A stretch of DNA of 64,000 nucleotides from Candidatus Omnitrophota bacterium. GTDB taxonomy: Bacteria > Acidobacteriota > Aminicenantia > UBA2199. Position numbers and translations under genes: made by a program. This document shows positions 338 to 15,170 of the stretch, piece by piece. A model generated the notes under the pieces. The model was not told the origin of the DNA and did no database searches. It saw only the letters and a list, made by a program, of their open reading frames with translations. The number at the start of each line of letters is the position of its first letter. The stretch's first letter is position 1. The DNA is taken from NCBI GenBank assembly GCA_050258455.1, contig JBLMYT010000012.1, positions 65,376-129,375 on the forward strand, written 5' to 3'.

Positions 338-1801
338 ATGAATGAATTATTAAACGACGTATTTGATCCCGAATCCTTTCGGAAAAATGGGCATCAACTG
401 GTAGACCTGTTAGCGGATTATCTGTTAAAGGCCCGAAATGGCGGGGATTTTCCGGTGTTGCCGTGGAAGGCGCCCGAGGAAATGGAAGCCAGATTGACAA
501 AGGATTTTCACGGTTCCGGTGCAGGCGATACCGAAGCCGCGTTTACGCGGTTTTGCAGCGAGGTGATTGAAAATTCGTTTCATTTCCATCATCCGGGAAA
601 CATGGGGCATCAGGTGGCGGTTCCGGCGCCCATGGCATCGCTGGTGGACTTCATGGGCAATGTGTTGAATAACAGCATGGCCATTTATGAAGTCGGACCG
701 TTTTCGTCGGTTGCCGAAAAAGTGGTGATGGACTGGTTGGGAGAGGTTTTGGGAATGGGGAAGAGGTCCGGGGGTGTGTTGACCTCCGGCGGTTCGATCG
801 GAAATTTGACGGCGCTTTTGGCTGCGCGCCAGAACAAAGCCGGCGACGACGTCTGGGAACAGGGCAACTGGGACCGTCCGCCCCTGGCGGTGATGGTTTC
901 GTCCGAATCGCATTACAGTGTTGCTCGGGCCGTCAAGATTATGGGATGGGGAGAAAAAGGGATCGTCAAGGTTCCCGTCAATGATCGTTCGCAAATCGAC
1001 CCCGATGCGCTTGAAGAAACGTATCGCCAGGCGATCAGGCAAGGCCGGCAGGTGATTGGCGTGGTGGCCAATGCGTGTTCGACTTCGACCGGGTCGTATG
1101 ATCCGCTGGATGCGATTGCCGATTTTTGTCGGGATAAAAATCTCTGGTTGCATGTGGATGGGGCGCATGGTGGCGGGGCGGTGTTAACGTCCAAGTACAA
1201 GCATTTGGTCAGAGGCATTGAAAAAGCCGATTCCGTTGTCGTCGATTTTCACAAGATGTTGTTGTGTCCGGCGTTAACCACTGCCGTGATCTTTAAAAAC
1301 GGGGACAATGCGTATGAAACCTTTTCCCAGAAGGCGTCCTACCTTTTGAGTGCGGATAAACGCGCCAGTGCCTTCGATATTGCCCAGCGGACCCTGGAGT
1401 GCACGAAAAAAATGATGGGGATTAAGGTGTATGCGTTATTAAAAATATATGGGGTTCGGTTATTTGAAGCGTATATCACCCGGGTGTATGACATGGCGGC
1501 AGAGTTTGCCGCGTTGATTCGGGATTCCGCTGATTTTGAATTGGCGTTGGAACCGACGTCCAATATTCTTTGTTTCCGGTATGTACCGGCATTCGTCCAA
1601 TCGGCGGATTTACGGGTGATCAACCAGTTGAATATCGATGTTCGGGAAAAGGTGAAAGAGGACGGGAATTTTTATATTGTTCGGACATTGGTTCATGATG
1701 CGGTTTATCTGCGATCGACCCTGATGAATCCGTTCACGTCTCGGGAAGACCTGGTCCGACTGCTTCAGCGGATTCGGGAGTTGGGGCCAGCAGGCCGGTG
1801 A
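338..1801 (+). CDS. pyridoxal-phosphate-dependent amino-acid decarboxylase (group II; Glu/DABA/aromatic-amino-acid decarboxylase family)
   Basis: 487 aa. Contains the motif SGGSIGNLTALLAAR and a PLP-lysine context VDFHKMLLCP. The overall length and motif order match group II decarboxylases. Confidence 0.85.
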   Translation: MNELLNDVFDPESFRKNGHQLVDLLADYLLKARNGGDFPVLPWKAPEEMEARLTKDFHGSGAGDTEAAFTRFCSEVIENSFHFHHPGNMGHQVAVPAPMASLVDFMGNVLNNSMAIYEVGPFSSVAEKVVMDWLGEVLGMGKRSGGVLTSGGSIGNLTALLAARQNKAGDDVWEQGNWDRPPLAVMVSSESHYSVARAVKIMGWGEKGIVKVPVNDRSQIDPDALEETYRQAIRQGRQVIGVVANACSTSTGSYDPLDAIADFCRDKNLWLHVDGAHGGGAVLTSKYKHLVRGIEKADSVVVDFHKMLLCPALTTAVIFKNGDNAYETFSQKASYLLSADKRASAFDIAQRTLECTKKMMGIKVYALLKIYGVRLFEAYITRVYDMAAEFAALIRDSADFELALEPTSNILCFRYVPAFVQSADLRVINQLNIDVREKVKEDGNFYIVRTLVHDAVYLRSTLMNPFTSREDLVRLLQRIRELGPAGR

Positions 1802-2084
1802 CTGGATCTTGAAAAAAAGAAAAGGGAATATTATAATACACCCATGAACGAAGACGCCGAGGGAGTGCTTCGCCATATGGTGAGAAACAATATTTTGTAT
1901 TTTGATCCTACCGAACTGGTCTATTACCCGCAGGGAATGAGTTACGTTTGGGGGATTAAGTCTTATTTTGAAAATGGCGATGCCGCCATTGAAACAAAAT
2001 AAGTTGCCGGTGGCCGGCAGCCGGTTAAGAAACTCAATCCTATCCTTTTCTTGTGTTGAAATCCAAAATTTGATAGAATGATAC

Positions 2085-4523
2085 ATGAAAAAACACATAC
2101 CTTTATTTATATTACTATTTATATTACCTGTCTTATTGGTTATCACCGTCTCTTATTTGAAAGATGCCCGTGGTCCTTACTGGCTCGGCACAAATTCGGA
2201 TCCCGATTATGTCTACCTTCTCAATTCATCCAATATGGCGGATTTAAAGAAGGTCGGCCATATCGACCACCCCGGAACCCCGGTTCAAATGCTGGGCGCC
2301 GGCGTTTTACGCGTCGTTCATCTGTTCAGCTCCACCAAAGATAATCTCCATACGGATGTCTTAAAACGCCCTGAATTCTATTTGAATGCCATTAACGGGG
2401 TGCTTCTGGCACTTAATTTTTTCATGATCCTGCTGCTTGGCATCGGTGTATACCGATTGACCGGAAGCCTGATCCAAAGTCTGCTGCTTCAATTCACCCC
2501 GTTTCTGATCGAATCGGCAGCGACCGGCTGCCTGACCAAGGTCAACCCGGAGCCGTTCCTGTTTTTGACGGGTCTCCTCCTGGTCTTCTTTCTGGTCAAA
2601 TGGACCCGTTCGGACCCGCACGCGTTCACGTTCAAGGAACCGATTCTCTGCGGCATGATCATGGGGCTCGGTATTGCAACCAAAATGACGTTCCTTCCCC
2701 TGGCTGTTATCCCGTTTGTTGTGTTTCCGAAGATAAAGGCAAAGGCCGTGTATTTCGGTTCCTCCATTCTGAGTTTCGTGATGTTTACTTTGCCCATCAT
2801 CAATATGTACCCTAAATTTTTCGACTGGATCATGCGGCTCATGACGCGCGAGGGTCGATACGGAACCGGGAAAGAACAATTCATCGACTGGGACGCCTGC
2901 TTCAAAAATACGCAGCAACTGCTGACCGAAAACCGGTTTTTTACGTTCGTTCTCGGGTTGTCGATTCTGGTTCTTCTTGCCGGAATCCTGGTTCCAGTGC
3001 TGCGAAAACGGTTCGCTTCCAGCCGTTATTTTAAACTCATCGGTGCCGTGATTCTCTCGGACCTCCTGGCGATGTTTATGATTTCCAAACATACGGGCCA
3101 ACACTATCTGCTGCCGGTTCTGTCGTTATCCTGCTTTTCCTTATACCTGATCCACGCCTATGTTCACGAGGCTCTGAACCACTTCAAGATCAAAACCAAA
3201 TACCTGACGATGGCTTCGATTCTGGTGATGGCAGGTCTGATCATCTGGCTAAACCCGTATCGCGAAATGAAACAAACGGCAGGTGCATGGAAAATTGTTC
3301 GAAATAAATCCATTGAAATCAATGATTTTGTTCAACAAAACTATCAGGATTACGCCAGGATTTATTATTACGGCAGTTCGTCACCGGCGTTTGCCTTAAA
3401 GTTCGGAAACGATTTATCCCTGAATTATCACCGGGATGTGCTTCAGCGGTTGTATCCCGACGTTTATTTTTATGATTTCATTCATAAAGAGTTTTACGGT
3501 TTCAATTACAATGAGACCAATCCGATTGCCAAACTCCAGTTAACCTACAGATCGAAGATCGTGTTTCAGGGACCGGAATGGCTGGAGATTCCGGGATTAA
3601 AATTAAAACCGGTTCGGGGCGGGAAGTTCATGGAGCGAATTTTGGTTCTGGATCAAAAGGAGTTCAAGGCGTTTAATCTGATTCAGGAGTGGGTGGTCCA
3701 GCACATTCCCAAAGGTCAAACGCTGGTGGTACCCAAAGAAGCGGCCATTTATATTACCTCCCTTCAAGCGGATTACAACATTGTGCTTTTGGATATCAAG
3801 CGTTTGCAGAAACCCGCGTTTTTAAACATGGGAGTATTTTTGGAGAATCCCTACTTTCTCGTTCCGTTCGTATCTTTTTATGGGAAGAGTACGCTTCCCC
3901 CTCTATTTGAGGAACGGTTAGACGCCATGCGGTATTTTATCGACAGAGAGGCCCTATTGCCCAATGACGAAAAGCCTCGATTTTTCATCGGGCGATTAAA
4001 GAAGAGTGCGTTTGATTTCTCTTCCCTGAAATACAAAGAGCTTGCCGTCTGGCAACCGCTCGAGAAAAATCCGGCCAATATTTCGCCTGCCATGGAATCG
4101 TTGGATATGAAAGGGCAGTTTGGGAGTGCCTATCAATCCGATGGGGCGCGGAATTGTTTTGCGGTGTGGAACACGGCGCCTTCAACGGATGTGGATCCCG
4201 CGTTTTGGCTTTTGGGTTACATGGCCAACAACAAAGGTCTGGCGATCGATCTCGCGCGCGTGGATCGGGTGTATTTCGTATCCAAGATCTATGTCTCGGA
4301 CAATATGATGAATAAAGAAAACCACATGTTTATCCAGGATTTTTGCAAGGATTGGGAACGGGAAAAAGTGTTTTTTCCTGCGCCGGGTTGGTATACGTAT
4401 TACATGTCGAAGAAAATTCGTCCCGGAAGCGCCAAGCTGCTTTTCGGATGGCGGTTTACGCCCCGGAAACTTCAGGACAAGCTGATGGTTAAAGACGTCA
4501 AGGCGTATATTCTTTTTAAATAA
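2085..4523 (+). CDS. large polytopic membrane protein, paralog A; putative GT-C-like glycosyltransferase (DUF2723/PMT/ArnT-like architecture)
   Basis: 812 aa. An N-terminal TM is followed by a loop with a DPDY acidic motif, then about 10 hydrophobic helices and a roughly 450-aa soluble C-terminal domain. It shares the N-terminal block ARGPYWLG.NSDP.YVYLLN...VGHIDHPGTPVQ and the C-terminal block YYY.GSSP..ALKFG.DLS with the next gene. Confidence 0.55.
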   Translation: MKKHIPLFILLFILPVLLVITVSYLKDARGPYWLGTNSDPDYVYLLNSSNMADLKKVGHIDHPGTPVQMLGAGVLRVVHLFSSTKDNLHTDVLKRPEFYLNAINGVLLALNFFMILLLGIGVYRLTGSLIQSLLLQFTPFLIESAATGCLTKVNPEPFLFLTGLLLVFFLVKWTRSDPHAFTFKEPILCGMIMGLGIATKMTFLPLAVIPFVVFPKIKAKAVYFGSSILSFVMFTLPIINMYPKFFDWIMRLMTREGRYGTGKEQFIDWDACFKNTQQLLTENRFFTFVLGLSILVLLAGILVPVLRKRFASSRYFKLIGAVILSDLLAMFMISKHTGQHYLLPVLSLSCFSLYLIHAYVHEALNHFKIKTKYLTMASILVMAGLIIWLNPYREMKQTAGAWKIVRNKSIEINDFVQQNYQDYARIYYYGSSSPAFALKFGNDLSLNYHRDVLQRLYPDVYFYDFIHKEFYGFNYNETNPIAKLQLTYRSKIVFQGPEWLEIPGLKLKPVRGGKFMERILVLDQKEFKAFNLIQEWVVQHIPKGQTLVVPKEAAIYITSLQADYNIVLLDIKRLQKPAFLNMGVFLENPYFLVPFVSFYGKSTLPPLFEERLDAMRYFIDREALLPNDEKPRFFIGRLKKSAFDFSSLKYKELAVWQPLEKNPANISPAMESLDMKGQFGSAYQSDGARNCFAVWNTAPSTDVDPAFWLLGYMANNKGLAIDLARVDRVYFVSKIYVSDNMMNKENHMFIQDFCKDWEREKVFFPAPGWYTYYMSKKIRPGSAKLLFGWRFTPRKLQDKLMVKDVKAYILFK

Positions 4524-4595
4524 ATTAAAATCAATTTAAATAAAACTTCGCGTTTAAATAACCGTCGCGTATTTACCAAAAATAAAAGTTTTTTG

Positions 4596-4617
4596 CTACT
4601 TTTTTTCAAAAAAGTAG
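4596..4617. repeat. A/T-only perfect hairpin, CTACTTTTTT-(TC)-AAAAAAGTAG
   Basis: A perfect 10-bp inverted repeat read directly from the sequence, lying between paralogs A and B. Confidence 0.5.
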
Positions 4618-4657
4618 AAGAAAAGAAAGAAAGAAAGAAAAAAAAAGAAAAGAAAAA
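4618..4657. repeat. homopurine (GAAA/GAAAA)n tract abutting the start codon of paralog B
   Basis: The sequence gaagaaaagaaagaaagaaagaaaaaaaaagaaaagaaaaa sits immediately 5' of the ATG at 4658. It is a candidate slipped-strand or regulatory tract. Confidence 0.6.
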
Positions 4658-6241
4658 ATGAAACGAAAGCATTATCCTTATTTGTTCATCTTTCCCTTGC
4701 TGATGGTATTCATTGCCATACCGATGAATCGTGCGCGGGGGCCGTATTGGTTGGGGAGTAATCTGGATCCCGAGTACGTGTATTTGCTGAATGCCGACAA
4801 TTTGGCCGGGTTGCGGGGCGTCGGGCACATCGATCATCCGGGAACGCCCGTGCAGGTCATGGGGGCGTTAACGATCCGAGCCCTTCATTGTTTCAGTCGC
4901 GGAACCGATGATGTTCACACGGACGTGGTGAAGCGGCCCGAATATTATTTAAATGCCATGAATACGATTTTGGTATCGCTCAATGTGATCATGCTTTCTA
5001 TTCTGGGAATTGTTTCCCTGATATTAACCGGGAGTTTGGGGGTCAGTCTTTGGCTTCAGGCGTCGATGTTTTTATCGATCGTGATTTTGCAATTCGGATT
5101 AACGCGGGTCACGCCCGAGCCGCTTCTTTTTTTGGCAAGTATGATGATGATCGGTGCTGTCTTATATGCGGTTTCCTGCCTGAAGCAGGAGAAACCAACC
5201 GGACGTCTTCTCGTTTTATTTGCCCTCATTACCGGATTCGGTATGGCGTGTAAAGTGACGTTTTTGCCGTTGATGGTGATTCCCCTGATCGTATTACCGG
5301 GTATTAAAAACAAAATTTCTTATTTGGCTGCGTCGACCGTGGGGTTTGTCGTTTTTACGCTTCCCATTATTCGAATGTACAATCGGTTTTTCGGGTGGAT
5401 CCATCAGTTGGTGACTCATTCGGGGCATTATGGGAATGGGCCTTCGGGGCTGATATCGACCGGCCGGTTGATGGAGAATTTGAAGAGCCTGATTCTTCAT
5501 CATGCATTCTTTTCCATTTCGTTATCGATCGGTTTTTTGGTCCTGGTTGCCGGGTTTGGGGTTCCCCGGTTTCGGAACTTACGAAAAGTACCGGAATCTA
5601 ACCTTTATTTTAAATTTCTGGTTGCGGTGGTGATGGCGCAAGTGATCGGTTTGTTGATAGTATCCAAGCACGCTTCGGATCATTATTTATTACCGGTGCT
5701 CAGTCTCTCCGGCCTGGCGTTATTTTTTGTTTATTCTTTTGTTTACTCTTTTGTTTACTCTTATCTAAAAAATTTGGGAATTTCTTTCCGTGTATTATCG
5801 TGGGTGATTTTAGCCGCGTTGGTGATCGGTATTAATCCCTGGAATCAGATTCAGTCCCGAATCGACGCGTTCACGCGTTTGAAAGAAACATCGTTGGCGA
5901 TTCACCAACACGCGGTGGAAACTTACAGAGACTTTGCCAGGGTTTATTATTATACGGGGTCTTCGCCGGAGTATGCGTTGAAATTCGGGGATGATCTGTC
6001 GCGAAGTTACCATTCGGAAGCCTTGAACCGGATCTACAAAGACGTTTATTTTTACGATATTTGGACGCAGCGATTGACGCGATTCGATTACAACCGGGTG
6101 GAATCGTTGGAACGGATGCGTTCAACGTATGGGGATAAGATTTTGTTTCAAGGAACACCGGGTTTGAAGATTCCCGGGTTGGAATTAAAAAAAATATTCG
6201 ATAATCAATCGAAAGAACGGATTTCAATCATTCACCCTTGA
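4658..6241 (+). CDS. polytopic membrane protein, paralog B of the upstream gene; putative GT-C-like glycosyltransferase
   Basis: 527 aa. Conserved blocks with paralog A are clear. It contains an in-frame triplicated 12-nt repeat encoding VYSFVYSFVYSY. The function is unverified. Confidence 0.55.
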   Translation: MKRKHYPYLFIFPLLMVFIAIPMNRARGPYWLGSNLDPEYVYLLNADNLAGLRGVGHIDHPGTPVQVMGALTIRALHCFSRGTDDVHTDVVKRPEYYLNAMNTILVSLNVIMLSILGIVSLILTGSLGVSLWLQASMFLSIVILQFGLTRVTPEPLLFLASMMMIGAVLYAVSCLKQEKPTGRLLVLFALITGFGMACKVTFLPLMVIPLIVLPGIKNKISYLAASTVGFVVFTLPIIRMYNRFFGWIHQLVTHSGHYGNGPSGLISTGRLMENLKSLILHHAFFSISLSIGFLVLVAGFGVPRFRNLRKVPESNLYFKFLVAVVMAQVIGLLIVSKHASDHYLLPVLSLSGLALFFVYSFVYSFVYSYLKNLGISFRVLSWVILAALVIGINPWNQIQSRIDAFTRLKETSLAIHQHAVETYRDFARVYYYTGSSPEYALKFGDDLSRSYHSEALNRIYKDVYFYDIWTQRLTRFDYNRVESLERMRSTYGDKILFQGTPGLKIPGLELKKIFDNQSKERISIIHP

Positions 6242-6280
6242 CCGGAAGATTTCAAACACTATTTATCCGAATAAAAAAAT

Positions 6281-7288
6281 ATGGTATCATTACCTCAAAT
6301 GGCAAGGATCGTAAAAATAGTTTTTTTCTTTATTTTTTTATTTACAGGGATATCCTGCCTTGTTCAGGGTGAAGCCAACCCATCCGATCCCGAAATCACA
6401 CCGTTAAAATACAATTATTATTACGTTTTCAAAGGGGATGCCAAAGGGACCATCCTGCTTATTTTTCATTATCGGGTTTATTACGAAGCGTCCGCGTCGA
6501 TTCAGCTCATTGCCGAAAGACAAAACGACAACACTTACCAATTTAATTACGATACGGCCAAAAATGCCTACGTGGCCCGTACGCTGGGATTCGGCGGACG
6601 CAGTATGTGTGTCATGAACGCAGATTACGATATCCATCACAACCTCACATTTGCCCGCGAAATTGAGAATTATTTAAAAACAATCCCCTATTACTCGAAA
6701 TACATCACCTCTTCCGGAATTTATCCTTATGAGATCACCACCAAAGATAAAACTGCCGTGACCTTTACCCGTGATCCCGGCGGCAAGACCCGAGACATCA
6801 TCTGCGATTTAAAACTGGTTCCAAAATTCAAGGACGACAAATTCGATACCTATTTTCATGTGGATAAAATCATGCAGGAAACCCTGAGGTGCTTCAACCA
6901 TTCGTTCCTGCCACCGGGAAAAGAACTTCAAGAGCTTCTCTCTTACCTCAATAAAGAATGGTGGAGCGCTCCGATCGATTTTTCTGCGATTATGAATGAA
7001 ATCTCTCGCCTCATTTCCACATTCACGGAAAAATACGTTCGCCTGCAACAGGAGTCACCCATCCGAATCAAATACCGAATCGCTTCCGCCGATAATGCCA
7101 TGATCCATGTCCTGGGTGAAACTTACCCGAATATCGGGATATGGCAGGATTGGAGAATAAAAAAAGTGGTCCGCAATATCAAGCTGAGACCCTCGGATTT
7201 CCTTCTTCTTGAGGATGAAGTGATCGCGGATATCAGAAATAAAAAAGGAAACGGCGGTTTCCTGCATGCATATTTGAAAAAGTTATAA
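6281..7288 (+). CDS. secreted hypothetical protein with an N-terminal signal peptide
   Basis: A hydrophobic N-terminus (IVKIVFFFIFLFTGISCLVQG) followed by a Tyr/Asn-rich soluble domain. No recognisable catalytic motifs. Confidence 0.5.
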   Translation: MVSLPQMARIVKIVFFFIFLFTGISCLVQGEANPSDPEITPLKYNYYYVFKGDAKGTILLIFHYRVYYEASASIQLIAERQNDNTYQFNYDTAKNAYVARTLGFGGRSMCVMNADYDIHHNLTFAREIENYLKTIPYYSKYITSSGIYPYEITTKDKTAVTFTRDPGGKTRDIICDLKLVPKFKDDKFDTYFHVDKIMQETLRCFNHSFLPPGKELQELLSYLNKEWWSAPIDFSAIMNEISRLISTFTEKYVRLQQESPIRIKYRIASADNAMIHVLGETYPNIGIWQDWRIKKVVRNIKLRPSDFLLLEDEVIADIRNKKGNGGFLHAYLKKL

Positions 7289-7386
7289 CCGTGTTGAGTG
7301 GATTCTCCGGCAATCGAATCCGGCCGAGCATGAGTCCTATTTTTTTAATATATTTACAAAAAAATATATACTAGCATTCGATATTA

Positions 7387-7395
7387 TGATATAAT
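7387..7395 (+). promoter_or_regulatory. extended -10 promoter element (TGaTATAAT) upstream of the radical SAM operon
   Basis: tTGATATAATt lies about 48 nt upstream of the ATG at 7443. A strong ribosome-binding site (AAAGGAGAAGG) precedes the start codon. Confidence 0.4.
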
Positions 7396-7442
7396 TAAAC
7401 GCGCTATACTTATCCGAACTAGATTCCGAAAGGAGAAGGATC

Positions 7443-8534
7443 ATGAACATCGGTCGACTTACATTTGTCGTCACGGATGATTGCAACTTCAGATGCCGTT
7501 ACTGCTCCCAGGAAAAAAACGGAACTCGCATCACCCATCCCATCATTCGAAATGCTCTGGAATTTTTTTCTCCCTTTTTTATGGAGGACCTTGTCATGAA
7601 CTTTTATGGTGGGGAGCCGCTCCTGGCGTACGATTATATCCGTTATGCCGTTGAAATGACCAGGGAACTGATCGGAAACCGGAACATTGAATGTACGTTT
7701 GGGATTTCGACCAACGGCAGCCTGCTGAACGATGACATCCTCGCGTTTTTTGACGAGCATCGATTTTCCGTCCTCTTGAGCTTCGATGGTCTGGCTCAAG
7801 ACCTGAACCGCCAACCGGGCAGCTTTGACCAAATGGTCAAGATCCTGAAGCGCATTCAGGATTTTCCGGGAATTTACCTCGAGACCAACAGTGTATTTAA
7901 TCCCCAATCGGTTTCCATGCTTAGCGAATCCATGCGTTTTATGGTGGAACAGGGAAGCACCGCGGCCATGGTGGATGTGTCTTCAATCGATCCCTGGTCT
8001 GCCTCCGAAATCGCGAGTTTTGAAGAGCAATTCGAGCAACTCCGCGAATATTTGGTTTCTTACTATAAAACGCATCGCGTCATACCGGTGAGCAATTTCC
8101 AGGAAAACAAACGCACCCGCCTGTTCGGGTGCGGCGCCGGGAGCGGCCGAATGGCCATTGCCCCGGATGGAAAGCTCTGGGGATGCCCTCTTTTTTACGA
8201 TTATTTCAAGGGCAAGGAAAATACCCCGGATTATCGGAAATATTTCTTTGGAGACTTGGACACATTTATCGCCCACCATGAAACCATTCATCCGAATATT
8301 TTACTCCATTACGAGGAACTGAACCAGGATTATTTCTGCACGGACCATGGCTATTGTTTCATGTGCGACGAACTGGAAGAATGTGCGACTTGCCCCATTT
8401 TCGCCGCTCAAGCCAGCTCCGAACTGGGAAAGATTCCTTCCCGCGTTTGCGAACTGACCAAAATCCGGAGACGGGTAATAAAAGAATTTTATCAAGATAT
8501 AGCGCCAATCAAATCCATTCCCATGGATAATTGA
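7443..8534 (+). CDS. radical SAM / SPASM-domain peptide-modifying enzyme (AnSME/PqqE/AlbA superfamily)
   Basis: A CNFRCRYC (CxxxCxxC) motif at residues 14-21 and the glycine-rich motif GGEPLL. The C-terminal SPASM cysteine cluster reads GCGAG...GCP ... CTDHGYCFMCDELEECATCP. A strong ribosome-binding site is present. Confidence 0.85.
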   Translation: MNIGRLTFVVTDDCNFRCRYCSQEKNGTRITHPIIRNALEFFSPFFMEDLVMNFYGGEPLLAYDYIRYAVEMTRELIGNRNIECTFGISTNGSLLNDDILAFFDEHRFSVLLSFDGLAQDLNRQPGSFDQMVKILKRIQDFPGIYLETNSVFNPQSVSMLSESMRFMVEQGSTAAMVDVSSIDPWSASEIASFEEQFEQLREYLVSYYKTHRVIPVSNFQENKRTRLFGCGAGSGRMAIAPDGKLWGCPLFYDYFKGKENTPDYRKYFFGDLDTFIAHHETIHPNILLHYEELNQDYFCTDHGYCFMCDELEECATCPIFAAQASSELGKIPSRVCELTKIRRRVIKEFYQDIAPIKSIPMDN

Positions 8535-8560
8535 TAAAATCAAAAAAATTTGGAGGAAAA

Positions 8561-9094
8561 ATGAAAACTTTACAACAATCGAGTTTTAACGAAGCCGTTG
8601 TCCACATTCAGGATTTTCTGGATGCCTTTCCCGAAAATGACTTGTCCGGTGAATTAATGGAAAAGAAAGCGAACGCCATGAAGGCCATGAAACACATTGA
8701 ACGCATCCTGGGCCGGTCCTTTGATCAATTTGTTCACCCGGATTTGCAAGATCCGACCAATGCGAGTGTTCCCACCAACGTCAAACCGCTGGACCGGGCC
8801 TCCGGGGAGTGCTGCAATCGGATCTATGGTTCCGGGGTTAATAGAAGTGTTTCCACCAGCAACGTCAAACCGCTGGACCGGGCTTCCGGTGAATGCTGCA
8901 ATCGGATCTATGGTTCCGGGGTTAATGGAAGTGTTTCCACCAGCAACGTCAAGCCGCTGGACCGGGCTTCCGGTGAATGCTGTGATCGGATCTATGGTTC
9001 CGGGGTTAATGGAAGTGTTTCCACCAGCAACGTCAAGCCGCTGGACCGGGCTTCCGGTGAATGCTGTGACCGGATCTATGGCTCCGGGGTATAA
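8561..9094 (+). CDS. candidate multi-core RiPP precursor peptide: a roughly 75-aa leader plus about 4 tandem 28-aa core repeats (NVKPLDRASGECC[N/D]RIYGSGVNGSVSTS)
   Basis: GGAGG lies 5 nt upstream of the ATG at 8561; the ORF-track start at 8531 is less likely. It starts 27 nt after the radical SAM stop on the same strand. It contains 84-nt near-identical tandem repeats, each with an invariant CC and YGSG. Confidence 0.6.
   Translation: MKTLQQSSFNEAVVHIQDFLDAFPENDLSGELMEKKANAMKAMKHIERILGRSFDQFVHPDLQDPTNASVPTNVKPLDRASGECCNRIYGSGVNRSVSTSNVKPLDRASGECCNRIYGSGVNGSVSTSNVKPLDRASGECCDRIYGSGVNGSVSTSNVKPLDRASGECCDRIYGSGV
8777..9094 (+). repeat. 84-nt tandem direct repeat, 3 full copies plus one truncated copy, inside the precursor ORF
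   Basis: Copies start at 8777, 8861, 8945 and 9029. Copies 2-4 differ by only 1-3 nt. Opposite-strand and alternate-frame ORFs across this region are repeat artefacts. Confidence 0.9.
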
Positions 9095-9130
9095 GGGCAT
9101 CGTTTATTCAAACCGTTTAATGAAAATGTA

Positions 9131-12100
9131 ATGAAATGTAAGTCTCCCAACCGTCGTCTGTTGTATGGGACGGCTCTTATTTTTTTCCTTGTCTGTAGCA
9201 CCACGGGTTTGTTGGGGTTAGCGCCATGGAAAGCCGTTTCCCAGTACTCCTTAACCTTATGGGGGAAGCGGGAAGGGCTTCCCCAACAAACGGTATATGG
9301 GATCGCCCAAACGCCCAACGGTTACCTGTGGATCGCCACCATGGAAGGCCTGGTCCGGTTCGATGGGATCCGGTTTGTGACTTACAACAAGGGCAATACC
9401 CGCGAATTGAAATCCAATATTATCCTTTCGCTATTTGTCGATCGAGCGGGAACGCTCTGGATCGGAACCGCTTCCGGCGGACTGACCGTTTATAAAAATG
9501 GAAAATTCACGAATTACTCCTCGAAGCGGTTCGATTTTTTAAATGAGATCAAAGCCATCAATGCCGATCGGCGCAACAACCTATGGTTGGGGACCTCCCG
9601 GGGGCTCGTGTGTTTGACGAACGGCACCTTTAAGTTATACACGGAAAAAAACGGTTTTCCGGTCAAACGGATTCGAGCCCTATACCAGGCCCGCAGTGGG
9701 GATCTGTGGGCCGCCACATCAGCGGGGATCATCCAAATCATCGCGCCCGGAAAGTTTTCATCGATTTCAGCCACCCCACCCATTCTCGACGCACCGGCCA
9801 TCACCTTATGCGAAAAAGCCGATGCAATCTGGATCGGTACCGAAGGCGGATTGCTCCGGATGGACCGGTCCAACAAACCTATCCTCTGGAATAATGAGGA
9901 TTTTCTGCGATATCCCATCACTGCCCTGCTATGCGACAGCGATAATAATTTATGGATTGGAACCGATGGCAAAGGGCTCATCCGAGAACGCAACCATCGG
10001 TTTGAAACCCTCCCCCTCGATCCGGGAGCAACGACTTATAACTATGTGTTCACGATCATGGAAGATCAAGAGAAAAGCCTCTGGCTGGGAACGCTGGATG
10101 GCGGCCTGTGCCAGCTTAAGGATACGAAGGTAACCACTTATACCAGCGGAGAAGGCCTGTTGAACGATAGCGTCAATTGCATTTACGAAGATAGCCAGGC
10201 CCGAATCTGGGTTGGAACCGGCCGGGGGATCGACTGTTTTAAGAATTCGCAATATGACCCTACATTTAAAGTGAAAGATGAGTTGATCAACCAGAAAGTT
10301 TACGGGATATGCGTGGATAAATCGGATAATATGTGGGTGGCTACTATATCCGGCCTCTTTTTCTCATCCCGTGAAAAAAATGTCATGTACCGGGCCTTAA
10401 ACGGTTTATCCTTCAAGTCATCGAATTGCGTGCTTCAGGCCAGCGACGGCACGCTCTGGGTCGGAACCAATTCGGGACTGGTTTACATGAATAAAGGGAA
10501 GGTCGGCCGGTTTACAAAGAAAGACGGACTGTTAAGTAACTATATTTTTCGCCTTCTTGAAGATAAAGAAAAGAGTTTATGGATATGTACCCACCACGGA
10601 TTAAATCGGATCAAAAACGGAAAGATCGCCACTTTTGCCTTTAATGAGGCCAACGATGCTTTGGCGACAGGGGGAATCGAAGACAGAGACGGTTCACTCT
10701 GGTTTGGGTCGTTGAATGGTCTTGTCCGGATAAAAAATGACCGCATGTATACCTTTACCACCGATCATGGGTTAATCGATAATTATGTCTATGGCGTGCT
10801 CGAGGATGATTTCGGGAAACTTTGGCTTTCCGGAAGAAATGGTATTTCGAGCGTTTCGAAGAAAGAACTAAACGAGATTTCTGAAAAGAAAAGAGAAAAG
10901 CTGGGTTCGGTGATGCTGTACAAGGAAGACGATGGTATGCGATCCCGGTGGTGCACGCCCGGTGGCGCCTGCAAGACCCGGGATGGGAAACTTTGGTTTG
11001 CCACCAGTATGGGCGCCGTGTTGATCGACCCCCACCGGATGACCGCCAACCGACCCCCGCCGCCGGTGATTATCGAAGAATTTTTGGTCGATGGCGAACC
11101 GATCGATACCTTTGGGAAACAACCCATTCAACTCCCATCCGGAAAAAAACGGTTTGAATTTTATTACACCTCCCCCAGCTTTGTCTCGCCCCAGAATCTG
11201 AGGTTTAAAGTCAAACTGGATGATTTCGATTCGGATTGGATCGAACGCAACCATGAACGCAGTTTTACCTATACGCAATTGACCCCGGGATATTATACCT
11301 TCAATGTCATGATCGCTTCGGAAGACCCGACGCAAGGCGTGACCAAAGCATCGATATCCTTCTATTTAAAGCCCTTTTTTTACCAGACCGTCTGGTTTTA
11401 TATCCTCATCAGCCTGACGGCATTATTTATCATTCTTTCCCTTCATCGCATCCGGATCCAACACCTCAAAACCAGTGAAAAAAAATTAACCAACCTGGTC
11501 CAATTGCGGACCCAGGAACTCAACCGCAAAACCCTGGAGCTGGAAGAGGCCAATACCGATCTTCAACAATCCGCCCGGATTATCGAAGCCAAAAATCGCA
11601 ATATTCTGTCCAGCTTTGCCTATGCCGGGCGTATCCAACATTCGGTTCTTCCCGGCGATGAACGCATCAAAATGATCATGGACGATTACTTTATCTTATT
11701 CAAACCCAAAGATATCGTGTCCGGGGATTTCTACTGGTTTCATCGCAGCGAAGATAAGTACTTCATGGCCGTGGTGGATTGCACGGGACACGGCGTGCCT
11801 GGCGCGATTTTATCCATTATCGGCAGCATGACCCTGAACGATATCATCGATTCACGAATTATTTCCGATCCCGCTCAATTTCTTTACCATATGCATAAGG
11901 GCGTTCAGAACGTGTTAAAACAGGAATACACCGAACACATCTCCAACGACGGGATGGAAGCCGGTATGTGCATGATTGATTTTAGTAAAAAATTGATCAT
12001 GTTTGCCGGTGCCCGACGCCCCCTTTATTATATTAAAGATTCCCAATTTTTTGAAATTAAAGGCGATCAAAAATCCATTGGCGGCCACCAGAAACGAAGC

Positions 12101-12382
12101 GAGACCGAACGCCGATTTACCAACCACACGATTCCATTTGATTCGGAGATCATTTTTTATATGGTGACCGATGGATTTGCCGATCAAAACAATGCCGAAA
12201 ATAAAAAATACGGCTCCCTTCGCCTGAAAGAGTTTCTTCAGAATCATGCCCATCTCGAGATGGCGCGCCAAAAAGAAGCCCTTATCGAGGAACTAACCCA
12301 ATATCAAGGCTCGGAAGAACAACGCGACGACATTACGGTTACCGGATTCAAACCGATCTATATTAACCTCAACAACTTTTAG
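9131..12382 (+). CDS. membrane sensor: periplasmic two-component-regulator beta-propeller repeats + Y_Y_Y domain + TM + coiled coil + PP2C/SpoIIE-type Ser/Thr phosphatase
   Basis: An N-terminal signal/TM is followed by more than 10 repeats of the LW(I/V)GT..GL type. The Y_Y_Y-like block reads FEFYYTSPSF...YTFNV. The TM helix is VWFYILISLTALFIILSL. The C-terminal SpoIIE motifs are SGDFYWF, VVDCTGHG and MVTDGFADQ. Confidence 0.8.
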   Translation: MKCKSPNRRLLYGTALIFFLVCSTTGLLGLAPWKAVSQYSLTLWGKREGLPQQTVYGIAQTPNGYLWIATMEGLVRFDGIRFVTYNKGNTRELKSNIILSLFVDRAGTLWIGTASGGLTVYKNGKFTNYSSKRFDFLNEIKAINADRRNNLWLGTSRGLVCLTNGTFKLYTEKNGFPVKRIRALYQARSGDLWAATSAGIIQIIAPGKFSSISATPPILDAPAITLCEKADAIWIGTEGGLLRMDRSNKPILWNNEDFLRYPITALLCDSDNNLWIGTDGKGLIRERNHRFETLPLDPGATTYNYVFTIMEDQEKSLWLGTLDGGLCQLKDTKVTTYTSGEGLLNDSVNCIYEDSQARIWVGTGRGIDCFKNSQYDPTFKVKDELINQKVYGICVDKSDNMWVATISGLFFSSREKNVMYRALNGLSFKSSNCVLQASDGTLWVGTNSGLVYMNKGKVGRFTKKDGLLSNYIFRLLEDKEKSLWICTHHGLNRIKNGKIATFAFNEANDALATGGIEDRDGSLWFGSLNGLVRIKNDRMYTFTTDHGLIDNYVYGVLEDDFGKLWLSGRNGISSVSKKELNEISEKKREKLGSVMLYKEDDGMRSRWCTPGGACKTRDGKLWFATSMGAVLIDPHRMTANRPPPPVIIEEFLVDGEPIDTFGKQPIQLPSGKKRFEFYYTSPSFVSPQNLRFKVKLDDFDSDWIERNHERSFTYTQLTPGYYTFNVMIASEDPTQGVTKASISFYLKPFFYQTVWFYILISLTALFIILSLHRIRIQHLKTSEKKLTNLVQLRTQELNRKTLELEEANTDLQQSARIIEAKNRNILSSFAYAGRIQHSVLPGDERIKMIMDDYFILFKPKDIVSGDFYWFHRSEDKYFMAVVDCTGHGVPGAILSIIGSMTLNDIIDSRIISDPAQFLYHMHKGVQNVLKQEYTEHISNDGMEAGMCMIDFSKKLIMFAGARRPLYYIKDSQFFEIKGDQKSIGGHQKRSETERRFTNHTIPFDSEIIFYMVTDGFADQNNAENKKYGSLRLKEFLQNHAHLEMARQKEALIEELTQYQGSEEQRDDITVTGFKPIYINLNNF

Positions 12383-12396
12383 CGTTTCATTCGGGC

Positions 12397-15111
12397 TCAC
12401 ACCTTGGGGCTCATCTTCTCGATGCGGCAGGCCGTTTGTTTATAACCGGGAATCCGGGAATAGGGATCGAGTCGGTCGTTGGTGAGACGATTCGCTGCGG
12501 CTTCGGGGAAATGAAAATTCATAAATAATTCGCCTTTGTGCACGTATCGATTCTTCCGAATCGCGACCGTCATCTCGCCCCGGCGCGACACCAATTTAAC
12601 GGCCTCTCCCTCTTCCACGTCGAATGCGGCTGCATCGACCGGATGGATGTCCAGTACCGGTTGGGGATCATAGGCGCTTAACGGTCCGGATTTGAGGGAC
12701 ATGGTCCCGGTCAGGTATTGGTACAGGGAACGCCCGGTATTCAGCATCAAGGGGAACGCTCCGTCGACGTCCTCGCGCAGTTGTTCATGACCGACGGGAA
12801 CCAGCTTGGCCAGACCAATGGGGAAATCGTCCCTGTACAGGAGGGGCGTCCCCGGGTGATCGCAGGCAGGGCATGGCCATTGAATCTCCTCGTGTTCGAG
12901 CCGTTGGTAATTCACACCGGCATAACTGGGCGTGAGTGAGGCAATTTCGTCCATGATTTCAGCCGTTGACTCATAGGTCATGGGATAACCGAGACGGGTG
13001 GAGATGGCGGCAATGTACCGCCAGTCTTCCAGGCATTGCCCGGGCGGGTCTACGGCTTTTCGGACCCGCAAAATTCGGCGATCGGAATTACACACGGTTC
13101 CGTCTTTTTCTGCAAAACAGGCGGCCGGTAGTACCACATGGGCCAGGGCAGCAGTTTCGGTTAAAAAGATATCCTGAACCACCAGAAACTCCAGTTTTTT
13201 CAACGCCGCTTCGGTGTGATTGAGATTGGGATCGCTGACCATCGGGTTTTCCCCCATGATATAAACCGCTTTAACGGCTCCTTCGGCAGCCGCATGCATC
13301 AGTTCAATGGCGCTGAGTCCCGGGTTGGGATCGAGCTGGTTGGGCGGTACCTTCCAGGCATCCGCGAATTTTTTGCGAATGGTGTCATGGGAAACCGACT
13401 GATAACCGGGATAAAAGTCGCACATCGCCCCCATATCCGATGCGCCCTGAACATTATTCTGCCCCCGGAGCGGATTGATTCCCGTACCGATGCGGCCGAA
13501 GTTTCCTGTAATGAGAGCCATATCGATCAGTGCCAGACAATTGCGGGTTCCGTGCGTGCTCTGACTCATTCCCATACCGGTGATCACCGAGGCCCGTTCC
13601 GCTTTGCCGTAGAGGTGCGCGGCAGCCACGAGATCCGCGGCCGGTATCCCTGAAATCGCCTCGACGCGTGCCGGCGAGTAAGCCCGGGTAACCTCCTTTA
13701 ACCGGTGGAAAGCAGCGGTGCCGCCCTGGATTCGGTTTTGGATAAACGCATGGTCAACCATTTTGTCTGCGATGAGCACATGGATGAGGCCGTTGATGAC
13801 GGCAATATCGGAGCCGGGCCGTTGTCGGAGCCAGAGGGCGGCATGTTTGACCAGGTCCGTGTACCGGGGATCGATCACAATGATTTTGGCGCCGTTTCTT
13901 GCGGCACGCTTGACGTACGTGGCAGTGACCGGATGCGTTTCAATCACATTGGACCCGATGGCCAGGATGCAATCCGCGACCTCGAATTCCGGCAGCGCGT
14001 TTCCGGCAGCCCCGGTTCCCAATGTTTGACGCATGGCCGTCACGGTAGACGCATGGCATAATCGCGCGCAGTGTTCGACATTATTGGTGCCGATAACCGC
14101 CCGAAAGAATTTCTGGAACAGATAATTTTCCTCATTGAGACATTTGGCCGATGAATACCCCGCCAACGCCCGGCTCCCGTAGGCGGATTTGATCCGCGCC
14201 AATTGCTCGGCGATCGTATCCAATGCCGCCTCGCGGGTGGTTTCGACCAATTGTCCATTCTTTCGAACCAGAGGCCGAGTCAACCGCTCCGGGCTGTGAA
14301 TGAACTCAAAACCGAAACGGCCCTTGACACACAAACGCCCCTGATTGGGCAGGGATTCGTTTCCGGTGATGCGAACAACCGTTTCATCCTGGACCCATAA
14401 ATCCATTTGGCAACCGACGCCACAATACGGGCAACTGGTTTTGACCTTGCGTTGAATCCGATCGATATCGACCGTCTCGGTCTGAGGCTTTTCGACAAGG
14501 GCGCCGGTCGGGCACAACTGGATGCATTCGCCGCACCCATCGCATTCGGACTCCCGCCAATGGTCGAACCCGGCAGAGATGTAAGACCGAATGCCCCGGG
14601 CCGAAAAAGAAAGGACATTTTTTTGCTGGATCTCGTCGCATGCCTTCACGCATCGGAAACATTTGATGCATTTGGTGCCATCGTAAGCCAGCACGGGTGA
14701 GGTCTCATCGATCGGGTAGGCGAGGGAACCCAGGAGCGACGGAAAGGTGCGTTTGCTTTTGTCCTCCAGGTGGTATCGCCGAATCAGTGTTTTGAATTCA
14801 TCCTCATAGCTGCCGTCGTCCGCCTCATTGTGCTCGGACAGGAGCAGATCCAGGACATTTCGGCGGAGGGATTCCAGCTCGGCGTCAAATGCCGTGACCA
14901 CCATTCCCGGTACGATCGATACGCCGCAAGCAGCCGGAAAACCGGGAACGCCGGCGATCTTGACCAGGCATAACCGACACGCACCGGTCGGGCTGATCCG
15001 GTGATGAAAACAAAGACCGGGAATATCGAACCCATTGTCCCGGGCCGTTCGGAGAAGATTGGCCCCCTCGGGCGCATAAACGGTTTTCCCATCGATGAGA
15101 AGAGAAACCAT
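12397..15111 (-). CDS. fdsA: NAD-dependent formate dehydrogenase alpha subunit (FdsA-type: 2Fe-2S + 4Fe-4S + Mo-bisPGD), cysteine variant
   Basis: It begins MVSLLIDGKTV, a NuoG-like 2Fe-2S N-terminus. The 4Fe-4S motifs are CIKCFRC and CDGCGEC. The molybdopterin domain carries ARLCHASTV, aligning with FdhF RVUHGPSV with Cys in place of Sec. The start was chosen at the internal ATG; the ORF-track start at 15378 looks over-extended. Confidence 0.8.
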   Translation of the reverse strand: MVSLLIDGKTVYAPEGANLLRTARDNGFDIPGLCFHHRISPTGACRLCLVKIAGVPGFPAACGVSIVPGMVVTAFDAELESLRRNVLDLLLSEHNEADDGSYEDEFKTLIRRYHLEDKSKRTFPSLLGSLAYPIDETSPVLAYDGTKCIKCFRCVKACDEIQQKNVLSFSARGIRSYISAGFDHWRESECDGCGECIQLCPTGALVEKPQTETVDIDRIQRKVKTSCPYCGVGCQMDLWVQDETVVRITGNESLPNQGRLCVKGRFGFEFIHSPERLTRPLVRKNGQLVETTREAALDTIAEQLARIKSAYGSRALAGYSSAKCLNEENYLFQKFFRAVIGTNNVEHCARLCHASTVTAMRQTLGTGAAGNALPEFEVADCILAIGSNVIETHPVTATYVKRAARNGAKIIVIDPRYTDLVKHAALWLRQRPGSDIAVINGLIHVLIADKMVDHAFIQNRIQGGTAAFHRLKEVTRAYSPARVEAISGIPAADLVAAAHLYGKAERASVITGMGMSQSTHGTRNCLALIDMALITGNFGRIGTGINPLRGQNNVQGASDMGAMCDFYPGYQSVSHDTIRKKFADAWKVPPNQLDPNPGLSAIELMHAAAEGAVKAVYIMGENPMVSDPNLNHTEAALKKLEFLVVQDIFLTETAALAHVVLPAACFAEKDGTVCNSDRRILRVRKAVDPPGQCLEDWRYIAAISTRLGYPMTYESTAEIMDEIASLTPSYAGVNYQRLEHEEIQWPCPACDHPGTPLLYRDDFPIGLAKLVPVGHEQLREDVDGAFPLMLNTGRSLYQYLTGTMSLKSGPLSAYDPQPVLDIHPVDAAAFDVEEGEAVKLVSRRGEMTVAIRKNRYVHKGELFMNFHFPEAAANRLTNDRLDPYSRIPGYKQTACRIEKMSPKV

Positions 15112-15170
15112 GGCCCGCGGCGCGCGCGCTCCCTGCCCATCCGGTGAATTTAAGCGATTGTACCTGATTT

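Follow-up and report, generated by a model that had tools for sequence, protein, structure and literature searches.

Three consecutive genes in a 64,000-nt stretch of DNA from a Candidatus Omnitrophota bacterium (NCBI GenBank assembly GCA_050258455.1, contig JBLMYT010000012.1, positions 65,376 to 129,375 of the forward strand; hereafter the window, numbered from its first letter) probably constitute one module: a radical S-adenosylmethionine (SAM) enzyme, its peptide substrate, and a membrane sensor. The first gene (7443..8534, forward strand) encodes a 363-aa radical SAM/SPASM protein, the second (8561..9094, forward strand) a 177-aa peptide with a leader and four tandem cores, and the third (9131..12382, forward strand) a 1083-aa sensor phosphatase. 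Sequence comparisons give good support to the identification of the enzyme as a putative maturase of peptides made by ribosomes and modified after translation (RiPPs), without a RiPP recognition element (RRE), and of the 177-aa product as its predicted substrate. By analogy with characterized relatives, the formation in each core of one Cys thioether ring, as in ranthipeptides or sactipeptides, is slightly favored.

The Precursor Peptide

The precursor gene begins 26 nt after the stop codon of the enzyme gene (8532-8534). A ribosome-binding site, GGAGG (8552..8556, forward strand), lies 4 nt 5' of its ATG at 8561, and the product is identical to P0121 (locus tag ACM3SY_01120 in the NCBI record). 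An earlier note on this DNA, made from the sequence alone, had recognized this open reading frame (ORF) and its GGAGG, but had placed it at 27 nt from the enzyme gene; likewise, the leader, estimated there at about 75 aa, comprises residues 1-72, while the announced series of about four 28-aa units is indeed present. These tandem core units occupy positions 8777..9091 of the forward strand, with starts at 8777, 8861, 8945, and 9029. Each full unit reads NVKPLDRASGECC(N/D)RIYGSGV and then the spacer N(R/G)SVSTS, and the final unit stops after GSGV. TRF describes the repeat with a period of 84, 3.8 copies, 95% matches, and a score of 547. Within the core, the copies differ at a single place: the N that follows the CC pair may be replaced by D.

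Of the differences between the repeat copies, eight are synonymous and three non-synonymous in the ORF frame (one of the three is the terminal stop), versus none synonymous and nine non-synonymous in each of the other two frames; hence, the precursor frame is under coding selection. The ORFs that run through the repeat in other frames (8654..9100, reverse strand, and 8697..9131, forward strand) are by-products of the repeat.

A hidden Markov model (HMM) of the leader alone was built from 23 family ORFs of other genomes, with the window excluded, and searched against the 823 six-frame ORFs of the window. A single match was obtained, the precursor ORF (8531/8561-9091; EAVVHIQDFLDAF...KKANAMKAMKHIERILGR; E = 6.9e-5), the next of the 823 ORFs having E = 1.6. 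The matching segment (8591..8716, forward strand; precursor residues 11-52, EAVVHIQDFLDAFPENDLSGELMEKKANAMKAMKHIERILGR) scores 18.2 bits, and the window precursor thus has the two-helix leader of the family. This unique match, together with the conservation of small ORFs beside homologous enzymes described below, indicates that the pairing of enzyme and precursor is real.

Beyond this family, the peptide stands apart. A word-indexed search of 5.8 billion proteins with the window precursor returned only the precursor itself. The phmmer matches among 1.84 billion representatives, for example P0122 with its LEAASGELSDRIMDVSG repeats, were rejected: they are repeat-driven and concern large, Cys-free repeat proteins. 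NCBIfam and Pfam contain nothing meaningful for the window precursor, a Galaxin_repeat match having been discarded (19.7 bits versus a cut-off of 28), and none of seven family precursors matches an NCBIfam model.

In family precursors, the second helix of the leader ends in a conserved hydrophobic-x-Gly(-Gly) element: …LQRVIAGG in locus L004 (3636-3887), …LQKIAAGD in L162 (3667-3867), …DLIHG, and …IERILGR in the window (8561-8776). It resembles double-glycine cleavage sites; no C39-peptidase exporter is encoded nearby.

The Radical SAM/SPASM Enzyme

The enzyme carries the radical SAM motif C14-x3-C18-x2-C21 (CNFRCRYC, residues 14-21) and matches the Pfam models Radical_SAM PF04055 (50.6 bits, cut-off 29.5) and Fer4_12. 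As the motif already begins at residue 14, there is no room for an N-terminal RRE. Seven Cys of a SPASM motif follow between residues 230 and 336 (C230-x12-G-x4-C248 ... C305-x2-C308-x5-C314-x2-C317 ... C336), and these are invariant in all 26 aligned sequences, the window enzyme and 25 homologues. The earlier note was thus right about the CxxxCxxC motif and the C-terminal SPASM cluster, as well as about the missing recognition element. The last step of the SPASM motif is spaced x2, versus x3 in the definition C-x9-15-G-x4-C ... C-x2-C-x5-C-x3-C ... C, and the Pfam SPASM HMM gives no match to the enzyme at E ≤ 0.01. The GGEP motif and other residues are invariant in the family alignment, and all family-invariant residues are kept in the window enzyme. 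The characters of the radical SAM/SPASM superfamily are therefore found together: CxxxCxxC with the core domain, a seven-Cys motif for two auxiliary clusters, and an adjoining precursor gene.

The AlphaFold2 model of the enzyme has a mean pLDDT of 89.8. On superposition, CteB is the best match (TM-score 0.76, E = 7e-19), before ChlB (about 0.72), anaerobic sulfatase-maturating enzymes (AnSMEs; 0.68-0.70), TigE, and SuiB. A profile search of PDB sequences also places CteB first, with 110.6 bits; AnSME reaches about 50 bits and ChlB 52, the latter over the N-terminal half only.

Among curated families, the top NCBIfam match is the PapB ranthipeptide maturase (NF047865; 125 bits, E = 4e-36), below its cut-off of 340. 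Lower scores are obtained with CcpM (89 bits, cut-off 500), a nif11-type model (84.5 bits, cut-off 519), the CXXX-repeat maturase models TIGR04115 (79.9 bits, cut-off 350, full length) and TIGR04119 (54.5 bits, cut-off 150), and the SCIFF maturase TIGR03974 (77.5 bits, cut-off 425); the QhpD HMM gives 61 bits. The AnSME model TIGR03942 aligns only with residues 11-173, the N-terminal radical SAM half (49.6 bits, cut-off 349). The enzyme stays below the cut-off of every curated NCBIfam family matched, so that membership in the PapB, AnSME, SCIFF, and CXXX-repeat families fails; the best NCBIfam matches (PapB, CcpM, CXXX-repeat, SCIFF) are all maturases of Cys peptides. An assignment as AnSME was rejected on this low TIGR03942 score; the PapB and CteB matches are much stronger. 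The clustering with AnSMEs that the earlier note had raised as an objection is likewise not seen in this HMM comparison.

PapB is similar in layout: its model also begins at the radical SAM motif, with no N-terminal domain (positions 3-279 align to enzyme residues 4-272), and the freyrasin precursor PapA carries several repeated Cys motifs, like the multi-core peptide of the window. Unlike that system, the window units read CC(N/D)RIYG without C-X3-D/E, the leader is unrelated, the phyla differ, and a sensor adjoins the cassette. CteB, which acts on SCIFF (thermocellin; PDB 5WGG/5WHY), is a Cys thioether former, the closest solved structure by both profile and fold, and also has a seven-Cys SPASM motif. 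It bears, on the contrary, an N-terminal RRE of ~95 residues (the alignment begins at CteB residue 98), and the SCIFF precursor, with six Cys in 45 residues, is unrelated to that of the window.

In size, RRE-less layout, and SPASM fold, the window enzyme is like anSME (PDB 4K36-4K39), which acts on a Cys in a short motif. Many family cores resemble the anSME-type C-x-[PA]-x-R, but the sulfatase motif is absent from the core of the window; its dissimilarity to this motif and to SCIFF had been pointed out in the earlier note and is borne out. The substrate of anSME is a sulfatase, whereas that of the window would be a small leader-core peptide dedicated to the enzyme (no search for a sulfatase elsewhere in the genome was made). 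ChlB (ChlB-ChlA; PDB 9GM3/9GMC), of ~375 aa, has low sequence similarity to the window enzyme in spite of the fold; having been solved with the leader of its precursor (PDB titles), it is a precedent for a short radical SAM/SPASM enzyme that binds a RiPP leader. A large radical SAM census has been anchored on RREs (PMC10288494); lacking an RRE, the present enzyme family falls outside it.

A Family of Enzyme-Precursor Loci

At least 808 homologues of the enzyme are present in the protein database at E ≤ 1e-10, the closest being only 46% identical. Those with a named source come mostly from metagenome-assembled genomes (MAGs) of Aminicenantes/Acidobacteriota. The family was delimited by 31-48% identity and the presence of all family-invariant residues, both of which are found in the window enzyme. 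In total, 46 loci were considered: 42 family loci from genome and metagenome collections and four looked-up contigs of the closest homologues. Directly beside the enzyme gene, 38 of the 46 have a small same-strand ORF of 59-164 aa with a helical leader, homologous to that of the window, and a C-terminal Cys core. The enzyme-precursor pair proposed in the earlier note is supported by this conservation, which that note had named as the point to check, and by the unique match of the leader HMM.

The precursor is mostly upstream of the enzyme. Among these loci, only L081, L163, and L166 have it downstream, and L014 and L083 have a small ORF on each side. Precursors with several cores occur elsewhere in the family: L005 has six GCEGGKPVIK units, L022 has four RGCGEGSPIKGEG units, and L004, L010, L163, and L166 have two cores each.

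In a neighbor-joining tree of 120 family enzymes among the matches listed (25 bootstraps), 17 of the 25 replicates place the window enzyme as sister to P0004/P0007/P0013. P0004 (L163) and P0013 (L166) are the clade members whose DNA was read, and both show the order of the window: the radical SAM gene, a small ORF, and a Reg_prop/Y_Y_Y/SpoIIE gene. Their small ORFs have two cores each (MSTLTDAKLRKYVELLFSETDGEGGSPDRASGAGCSAEE...APDRASGAGCSAE; MSTLTDANRRKFEELLFSPAEGGGSPDRASGDACGSEGG...APDRASGTGCVNG). These cores read SPDRASGAGC, APDRASGAGC, SPDRASGDAC, and APDRASGTGC, and have P-x-DRASG-x-x-C in common with KPLDRASGECC of the window. Since the second Cys of the window pair aligns to the PDRASG-x-x-C of the sister clade, it is presumably the conserved and reactive one. 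The invariant Cys pair that the earlier note took as the hallmark does not hold, judging by this alignment: one Cys per core is conserved, and the CC doublet appears specific to the window. A profile built from the precursors of L163 and L166 retrieved no sequences besides these two, and the window peptide likewise brought nothing further; the DRASG sub-type is rare. The window is an outlying member of the family, with its four tandem 28-aa cores, CC doublet, and downstream precursor.

Some family loci show additional features. In L083, an upstream leader-like ORF (8-268) lacks any Cys (…PAPSGEGRGMAKRIKG) and exists besides a precursor with Cys downstream; this ORF may represent a paralogue that has decayed or that is regulatory. 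L004 contains, after an extra precursor copy (2766-2969), a truncated and degenerate duplicate of the radical SAM N-terminus (3078-3362, 94 aa, FWGEEPLL for FYGGEPLL), which indicates a tandem duplication of the cassette and decay of one copy. In L166, a second, unrelated radical SAM gene (883-2148, reverse strand) and a Cys/Gly-rich small ORF (2275-2529, reverse strand; …GHCKDSGCSGPGTVGHCGSGCSIGGSCVGGCGPGF…) are separated by ~1.5 kb from the DRASG cassette, so that this locus has two neighboring RiPP-like cassettes.

The Adjacent Sensor

The sensor gene begins 36 nt after the precursor stop. Its product has hydrophobic segments at residues 10-31 (signal or transmembrane) and 750-776 (transmembrane), which place the Reg_prop beta-propellers and Y_Y_Y domain outside the cell and the SpoIIE/PP2C domain (SiaA-like) in the cytoplasm. 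Such a sensor was not part of the earlier note, and neither were the large size of the family and the mostly upstream position of its precursors.

All adjoining proteins of at least 130 aa were clustered for 43 sources (the 42 family loci and the window). Only two families occur in more than two loci: the radical SAM enzyme and large signaling proteins. A membrane sensor adjoins the cassette in 30 of the 42 scanned family loci and in the window (31/43 sources), and also in the four looked-up contigs. Three architectures are found. The first, Reg_prop with Y_Y_Y, has a SpoIIE/PP2C output in the window, L014, L162, L163, and L166, a HisKA-HATPase-REC output in L004, and an AraC helix-turn-helix (HTH) in L002; it is also present at L083, L089, L093, and L097. 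The second, of ~1030 aa, combines a zinc-ribbon, a Ser/Thr kinase, FlgO-like, and TPR domains and is convergent and immediately downstream at 15 loci; the P0002 contigs L164/L165 have a similarly placed convergent gene, with TPR matches recorded for L165. The third, of ~603 aa, has an N-terminal HTH, FlgO-like, and TPR domains and lies upstream on the same strand at eight loci. The extracytoplasmic module is thus kept while the output varies, with five output domains in the three architectures, and the precursor leader and core types track the sensor type.

Compared along the full length, the window sensor and the cassette-adjacent sensors of L162, L163, and L166 have 45-46% identity. The enzymes diverge to the same degree, so that the module is inherited as a unit. 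Furthermore, this is the one Reg_prop gene in the whole 64-kb window, which makes adjacency by chance unlikely.

The cores associated with Reg_prop sensors (L002, L004, L090, L162, L163, L166, and window 8777-9091) have a common [KR]-P-[IL]-(A)-D-R-(A)-[ST]-like element. It follows the Cys in L004 (RPIADRS) and partly in L002/L090 (PRID), and precedes it in the window (KPLDRAS) and in L163/L166 (PDRAS). This element could be a receptor epitope, a recognition element, or a coincidence.

Core Peptides and Likely Chemistry

Core statistics were taken over 44 family cores; as related loci are included, the counts are only suggestive. Cys is the only invariant residue. Relative to it, positions -3, -1, +2, and +3 are enriched in Gly, +4 in Arg/Lys, and +5 in Pro. 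A family core usually has one conserved Cys, set in a context like G-x-G-C-x-G-x-[RK]-P, and stops 7-10 residues beyond it. Counted from the last Cys, the tail lengths show a sharp lower mode at 7 (10/44 cores end at +7), and Asp stands at +7 in five of the 44 cores: L002, L004a, both L004b cores, and L090, where it is also the final residue. The DRASG clade has Glu at +3 in three cores and a C-terminal Gly there in the fourth. The window core has CC with no Pro or Gly after the Cys, contains DRASG-x-x-C like the sister clade, and in the last unit extends 8 residues beyond the second Cys. As the ORF stops precisely at this point, within the usual 7-10 residues of the family, GSGV is suggested as the natural end of each released core and N(G/R)SVSTS as a spacer.

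In CteB, the Cys of the substrate fills an open site on auxiliary cluster I. The present family keeps seven, not eight, SPASM Cys in the alignment, an arrangement that appears to match that of CteB. One thioether per core is favored for several reasons taken together: PapB leads the HMM matches and CteB the structural ones, the SPASM motif has seven Cys, an Asp or the C-terminus peaks at +7, and Cys is the sole invariant core residue.

Two acceptors are candidates in the window. NxxcB forms a beta-thioether from Cys to an upstream Asn, and QhpD forms Cys-Asp/Glu thioethers. They are precedents for Asn/Asp beta-carbon acceptors and for acceptors N-terminal to the Cys, comparable with CC(N/D) and DRASG-x-x-C. 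Streptococcal quorum sensing regulates NxxcB, which carries an RRE; the window enzyme is in neither the NxxcB nor the QhpD family. PapB tolerates Cys-X0-6-Asp/Glu as well as C-terminal acceptors, and links the Cys sulfur to the carbon beside the Asp/Glu carboxylate (PMC9413430, PMC12373016). The peak at +7, Asp or C-terminus, would fit this chemistry. The Asn/Asp directly after CC seems an attractive acceptor, because both residues have a beta-carbon next to a carbonyl and PapB accepts Cys-X0-6-Asp. The other candidate is the invariant Asp of DRASG, seven residues upstream.

In the proposed mechanism, the enzyme probably recognizes the two-helix leader directly, and each of the four tandem cores would be modified at the conserved Cys, the second of the CC pair. 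The 5'-deoxyadenosyl radical would take a hydrogen atom; the Cys sulfur, perhaps held on an auxiliary cluster, would then attack and close one intramolecular thioether ring per core. The matured peptide would be exported (export is assumed) and act as a ligand or auto-inducer of the Reg_prop/Y_Y_Y sensor, whose cytoplasmic PP2C domain would switch a downstream phospho-relay. That the peptide is the signal for the co-inherited sensor is speculative, and this part of the proposal is advanced only tentatively. With an ectodomain that is kept and an output that changes, the simplest functional link would join peptide and ectodomain, the mature peptide being sensed in the way that the kinase NisK senses nisin.

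Several observations weigh against this picture. The window core is without the common C-x-G-x-[RK]-P motif of the family, and units 1 and 2 have no Asp/Glu at a fixed distance after the Cys. The enzyme scores far under the PapB, SCIFF, and CcpM cut-offs, and the thioether chemistry is assigned by analogy. No precursor is recognizable at eight family loci, many loci are phylogenetically related, so that the counts overstate independence, and the repeat copy number, which comes from a MAG assembly, is uncertain. Moreover, no protease or exporter is conserved near the cassette in the neighbor clustering, and none is encoded at 2085-15378 of the window. The sensor could also simply regulate the operon or respond to something else.

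Alternative Explanations

The small ORF itself might be a chance frame through an 84-nt repeat or an assembly artefact, hence not a real gene or not the substrate: tandem repeats do open long ORFs in several frames, as seen here at 8654..9100 and 8697..9131, and the two whole-database searches brought no true protein homologue. This is largely refuted, and very improbable, given the 8:3 ratio of synonymous to non-synonymous differences in frame versus 0:9 in each other frame, the GGAGG 4 nt before the ATG, a leader outside the repeat that is uniquely matched by the family HMM, and the DRASG-x-x-C and gene order common with L163 and L166. If the pair is accepted, the same enzyme could still install a C-C or C-O side-chain cross-link, for example Arg-Tyr or a cyclophane on R-I-Y, the Cys then being bystanders, ligands of a cluster, or partners in a disulfide. 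Among the fold neighbors are SuiB, which forms C-C cross-links, and ChlB, which has no RRE; R-I-Y-G is present in the window core, and aromatic residues stand at +4 in some cores (CEGAWP, CAGGWP, CGVQYP). Such a link is nonetheless improbable: the sister-clade cores have no Tyr/Arg after the Cys (CSAE, CGSE, CVNG), Cys is the sole invariant core residue, and the best sequence matches are thioether-forming enzymes. Still less probable is an AnSME-like oxidation of the core Cys to formylglycine, or to another oxidized Cys, yielding an aldehyde-bearing RiPP. The sulfatase motif is C/S-x-P/A-x-R, and many cores with C-x-[GA]-x-[RK] (CPGARP, CPGSRP, CEGGKP, CPAGRI) are similar to it; the RRE-less layout and the AnSME-like size and fold (TM-score 0.68-0.70) point the same way. 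Yet AnSME has an eighth conserved SPASM Cys that this family lacks, the AnSME HMM scores 49.6 versus 349 bits in the N-terminal radical SAM half only, far behind PapB and CteB, and neither CCNRI of the window nor GCSAE of the sister clade fits C-x-[PAG]-x-R.

For the role of the thioether peptide that is preferred here, the alternative is an antimicrobial or another effector, the sensor then regulating the operon, sensing something unrelated, or giving a response of the producer. Most characterized radical SAM thioether RiPPs are described as antimicrobial or of unknown function, and biosynthetic clusters are commonly flanked by regulators. An effector is nevertheless somewhat doubtful, as the neighbor clustering brought out no conserved genes for immunity, an exporter, or a protease across the family, and the retention of the sensor ectodomain across five outputs and three architectures points to a sensor domain coupled to the peptide. 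As nisin and NisK illustrate, both roles are compatible.

Genomic Neighborhood

The cassette is preceded by an AT-rich intergenic region (7289..7442, forward strand) with a promoter-like TTAATA-16-TATACT at 7345-7372, a consensus match only, and the ribosome-binding site of the enzyme gene, AGGAG, at 7431-7435. The immediate upstream neighbor of the enzyme gene (6281-7288) encodes a 335-aa protein with a lipoprotein-like N-terminus (…FTGISCLVQG), for which no family match was obtained and no homologue was found in any of the 166 fetched loci; its place beside the enzyme gene is not kept elsewhere. Further upstream, 2085-4523 and 4658-6241 encode tandem paralogous multi-pass membrane proteins of 812 and 527 aa, 43% identical over ~528 aa, without Pfam or NCBIfam match at E ≤ 0.01. 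The 335-aa gene and the two membrane paralogues were rejected as members of the cassette, having no homologues in any family locus.

On the other side, a 993-aa ORF (12397-15378, reverse strand), molybdopterin-oxidoreductase-like by eye from its 2Fe-2S/4Fe-4S and MopB-type features, is convergent with the sensor gene, 14 nt from its end, and therefore marks the 3' boundary of the module. A terminator between precursor and sensor was considered and rejected: the only terminator-like candidate nearby (9153-9174) falls within the sensor ORF and does not rise above what shuffling predicts. An Rfam search of the whole window gave no matches.

In the sister clade, L163 (2305-3387, reverse strand) and L166 (2871-3953, reverse strand) encode a 360-aa LIM and DA1-like zinc-metallopeptidase with an HELLH motif, the copies being 87% identical. 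The gene is divergent and just upstream of the radical SAM gene, adjoining it in L166 and separated from it by one small gene in L163; the window has no such gene. The product is a candidate leader peptidase, but was rejected as a conserved protease of the family, as it occurs only in L163 and L166.

Significance

Radical SAM/SPASM-modified peptides are already well known; what is new here is the enzyme family, the precursor family, and their recurrent coupling to membrane sensors. Full-text literature searches on radical SAM RiPPs of Aminicenantes/Acidobacteria and on links between RiPPs and sensors or quorum sensing brought no published description of the family, and a search on ChlB only a passing mention. 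Neither the enzyme, with its at least 808 homologues, nor the precursors are covered by a curated Pfam or NCBIfam model at cut-off. In practical terms, the family is a source of compact peptide cyclases that depend on a leader and have natural multi-core substrates; these may serve in the making of thioether macrocycles, as PapB does.

The family comes almost entirely from uncultured phyla of sediment and groundwater, whose chemistry and cell-cell communication are essentially unknown. The repeated association of a minimal two-gene RiPP cassette with sensors of interchangeable outputs leads to a testable hypothesis of peptide signaling. It is possible, if rather unlikely at present, that the window is one case of a widespread, undescribed class of peptide-signaling modules in uncultured Gram-negative phyla (Aminicenantes, Acidobacteriota, Omnitrophota), in which a small Cys peptide, cyclized by an RRE-less radical SAM/SPASM enzyme, is the cognate ligand of a co-evolving membrane receptor. 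The ectodomain of this receptor (Reg_prop/Y_Y_Y or FlgO-like/TPR) would be conserved, with PP2C phosphatase, histidine kinase, AraC, Ser/Thr kinase, or HTH as varying outputs. If this is true, the tandem cores of the window would be a way to raise the dose of the signal or its diversity, through the N and D variants.

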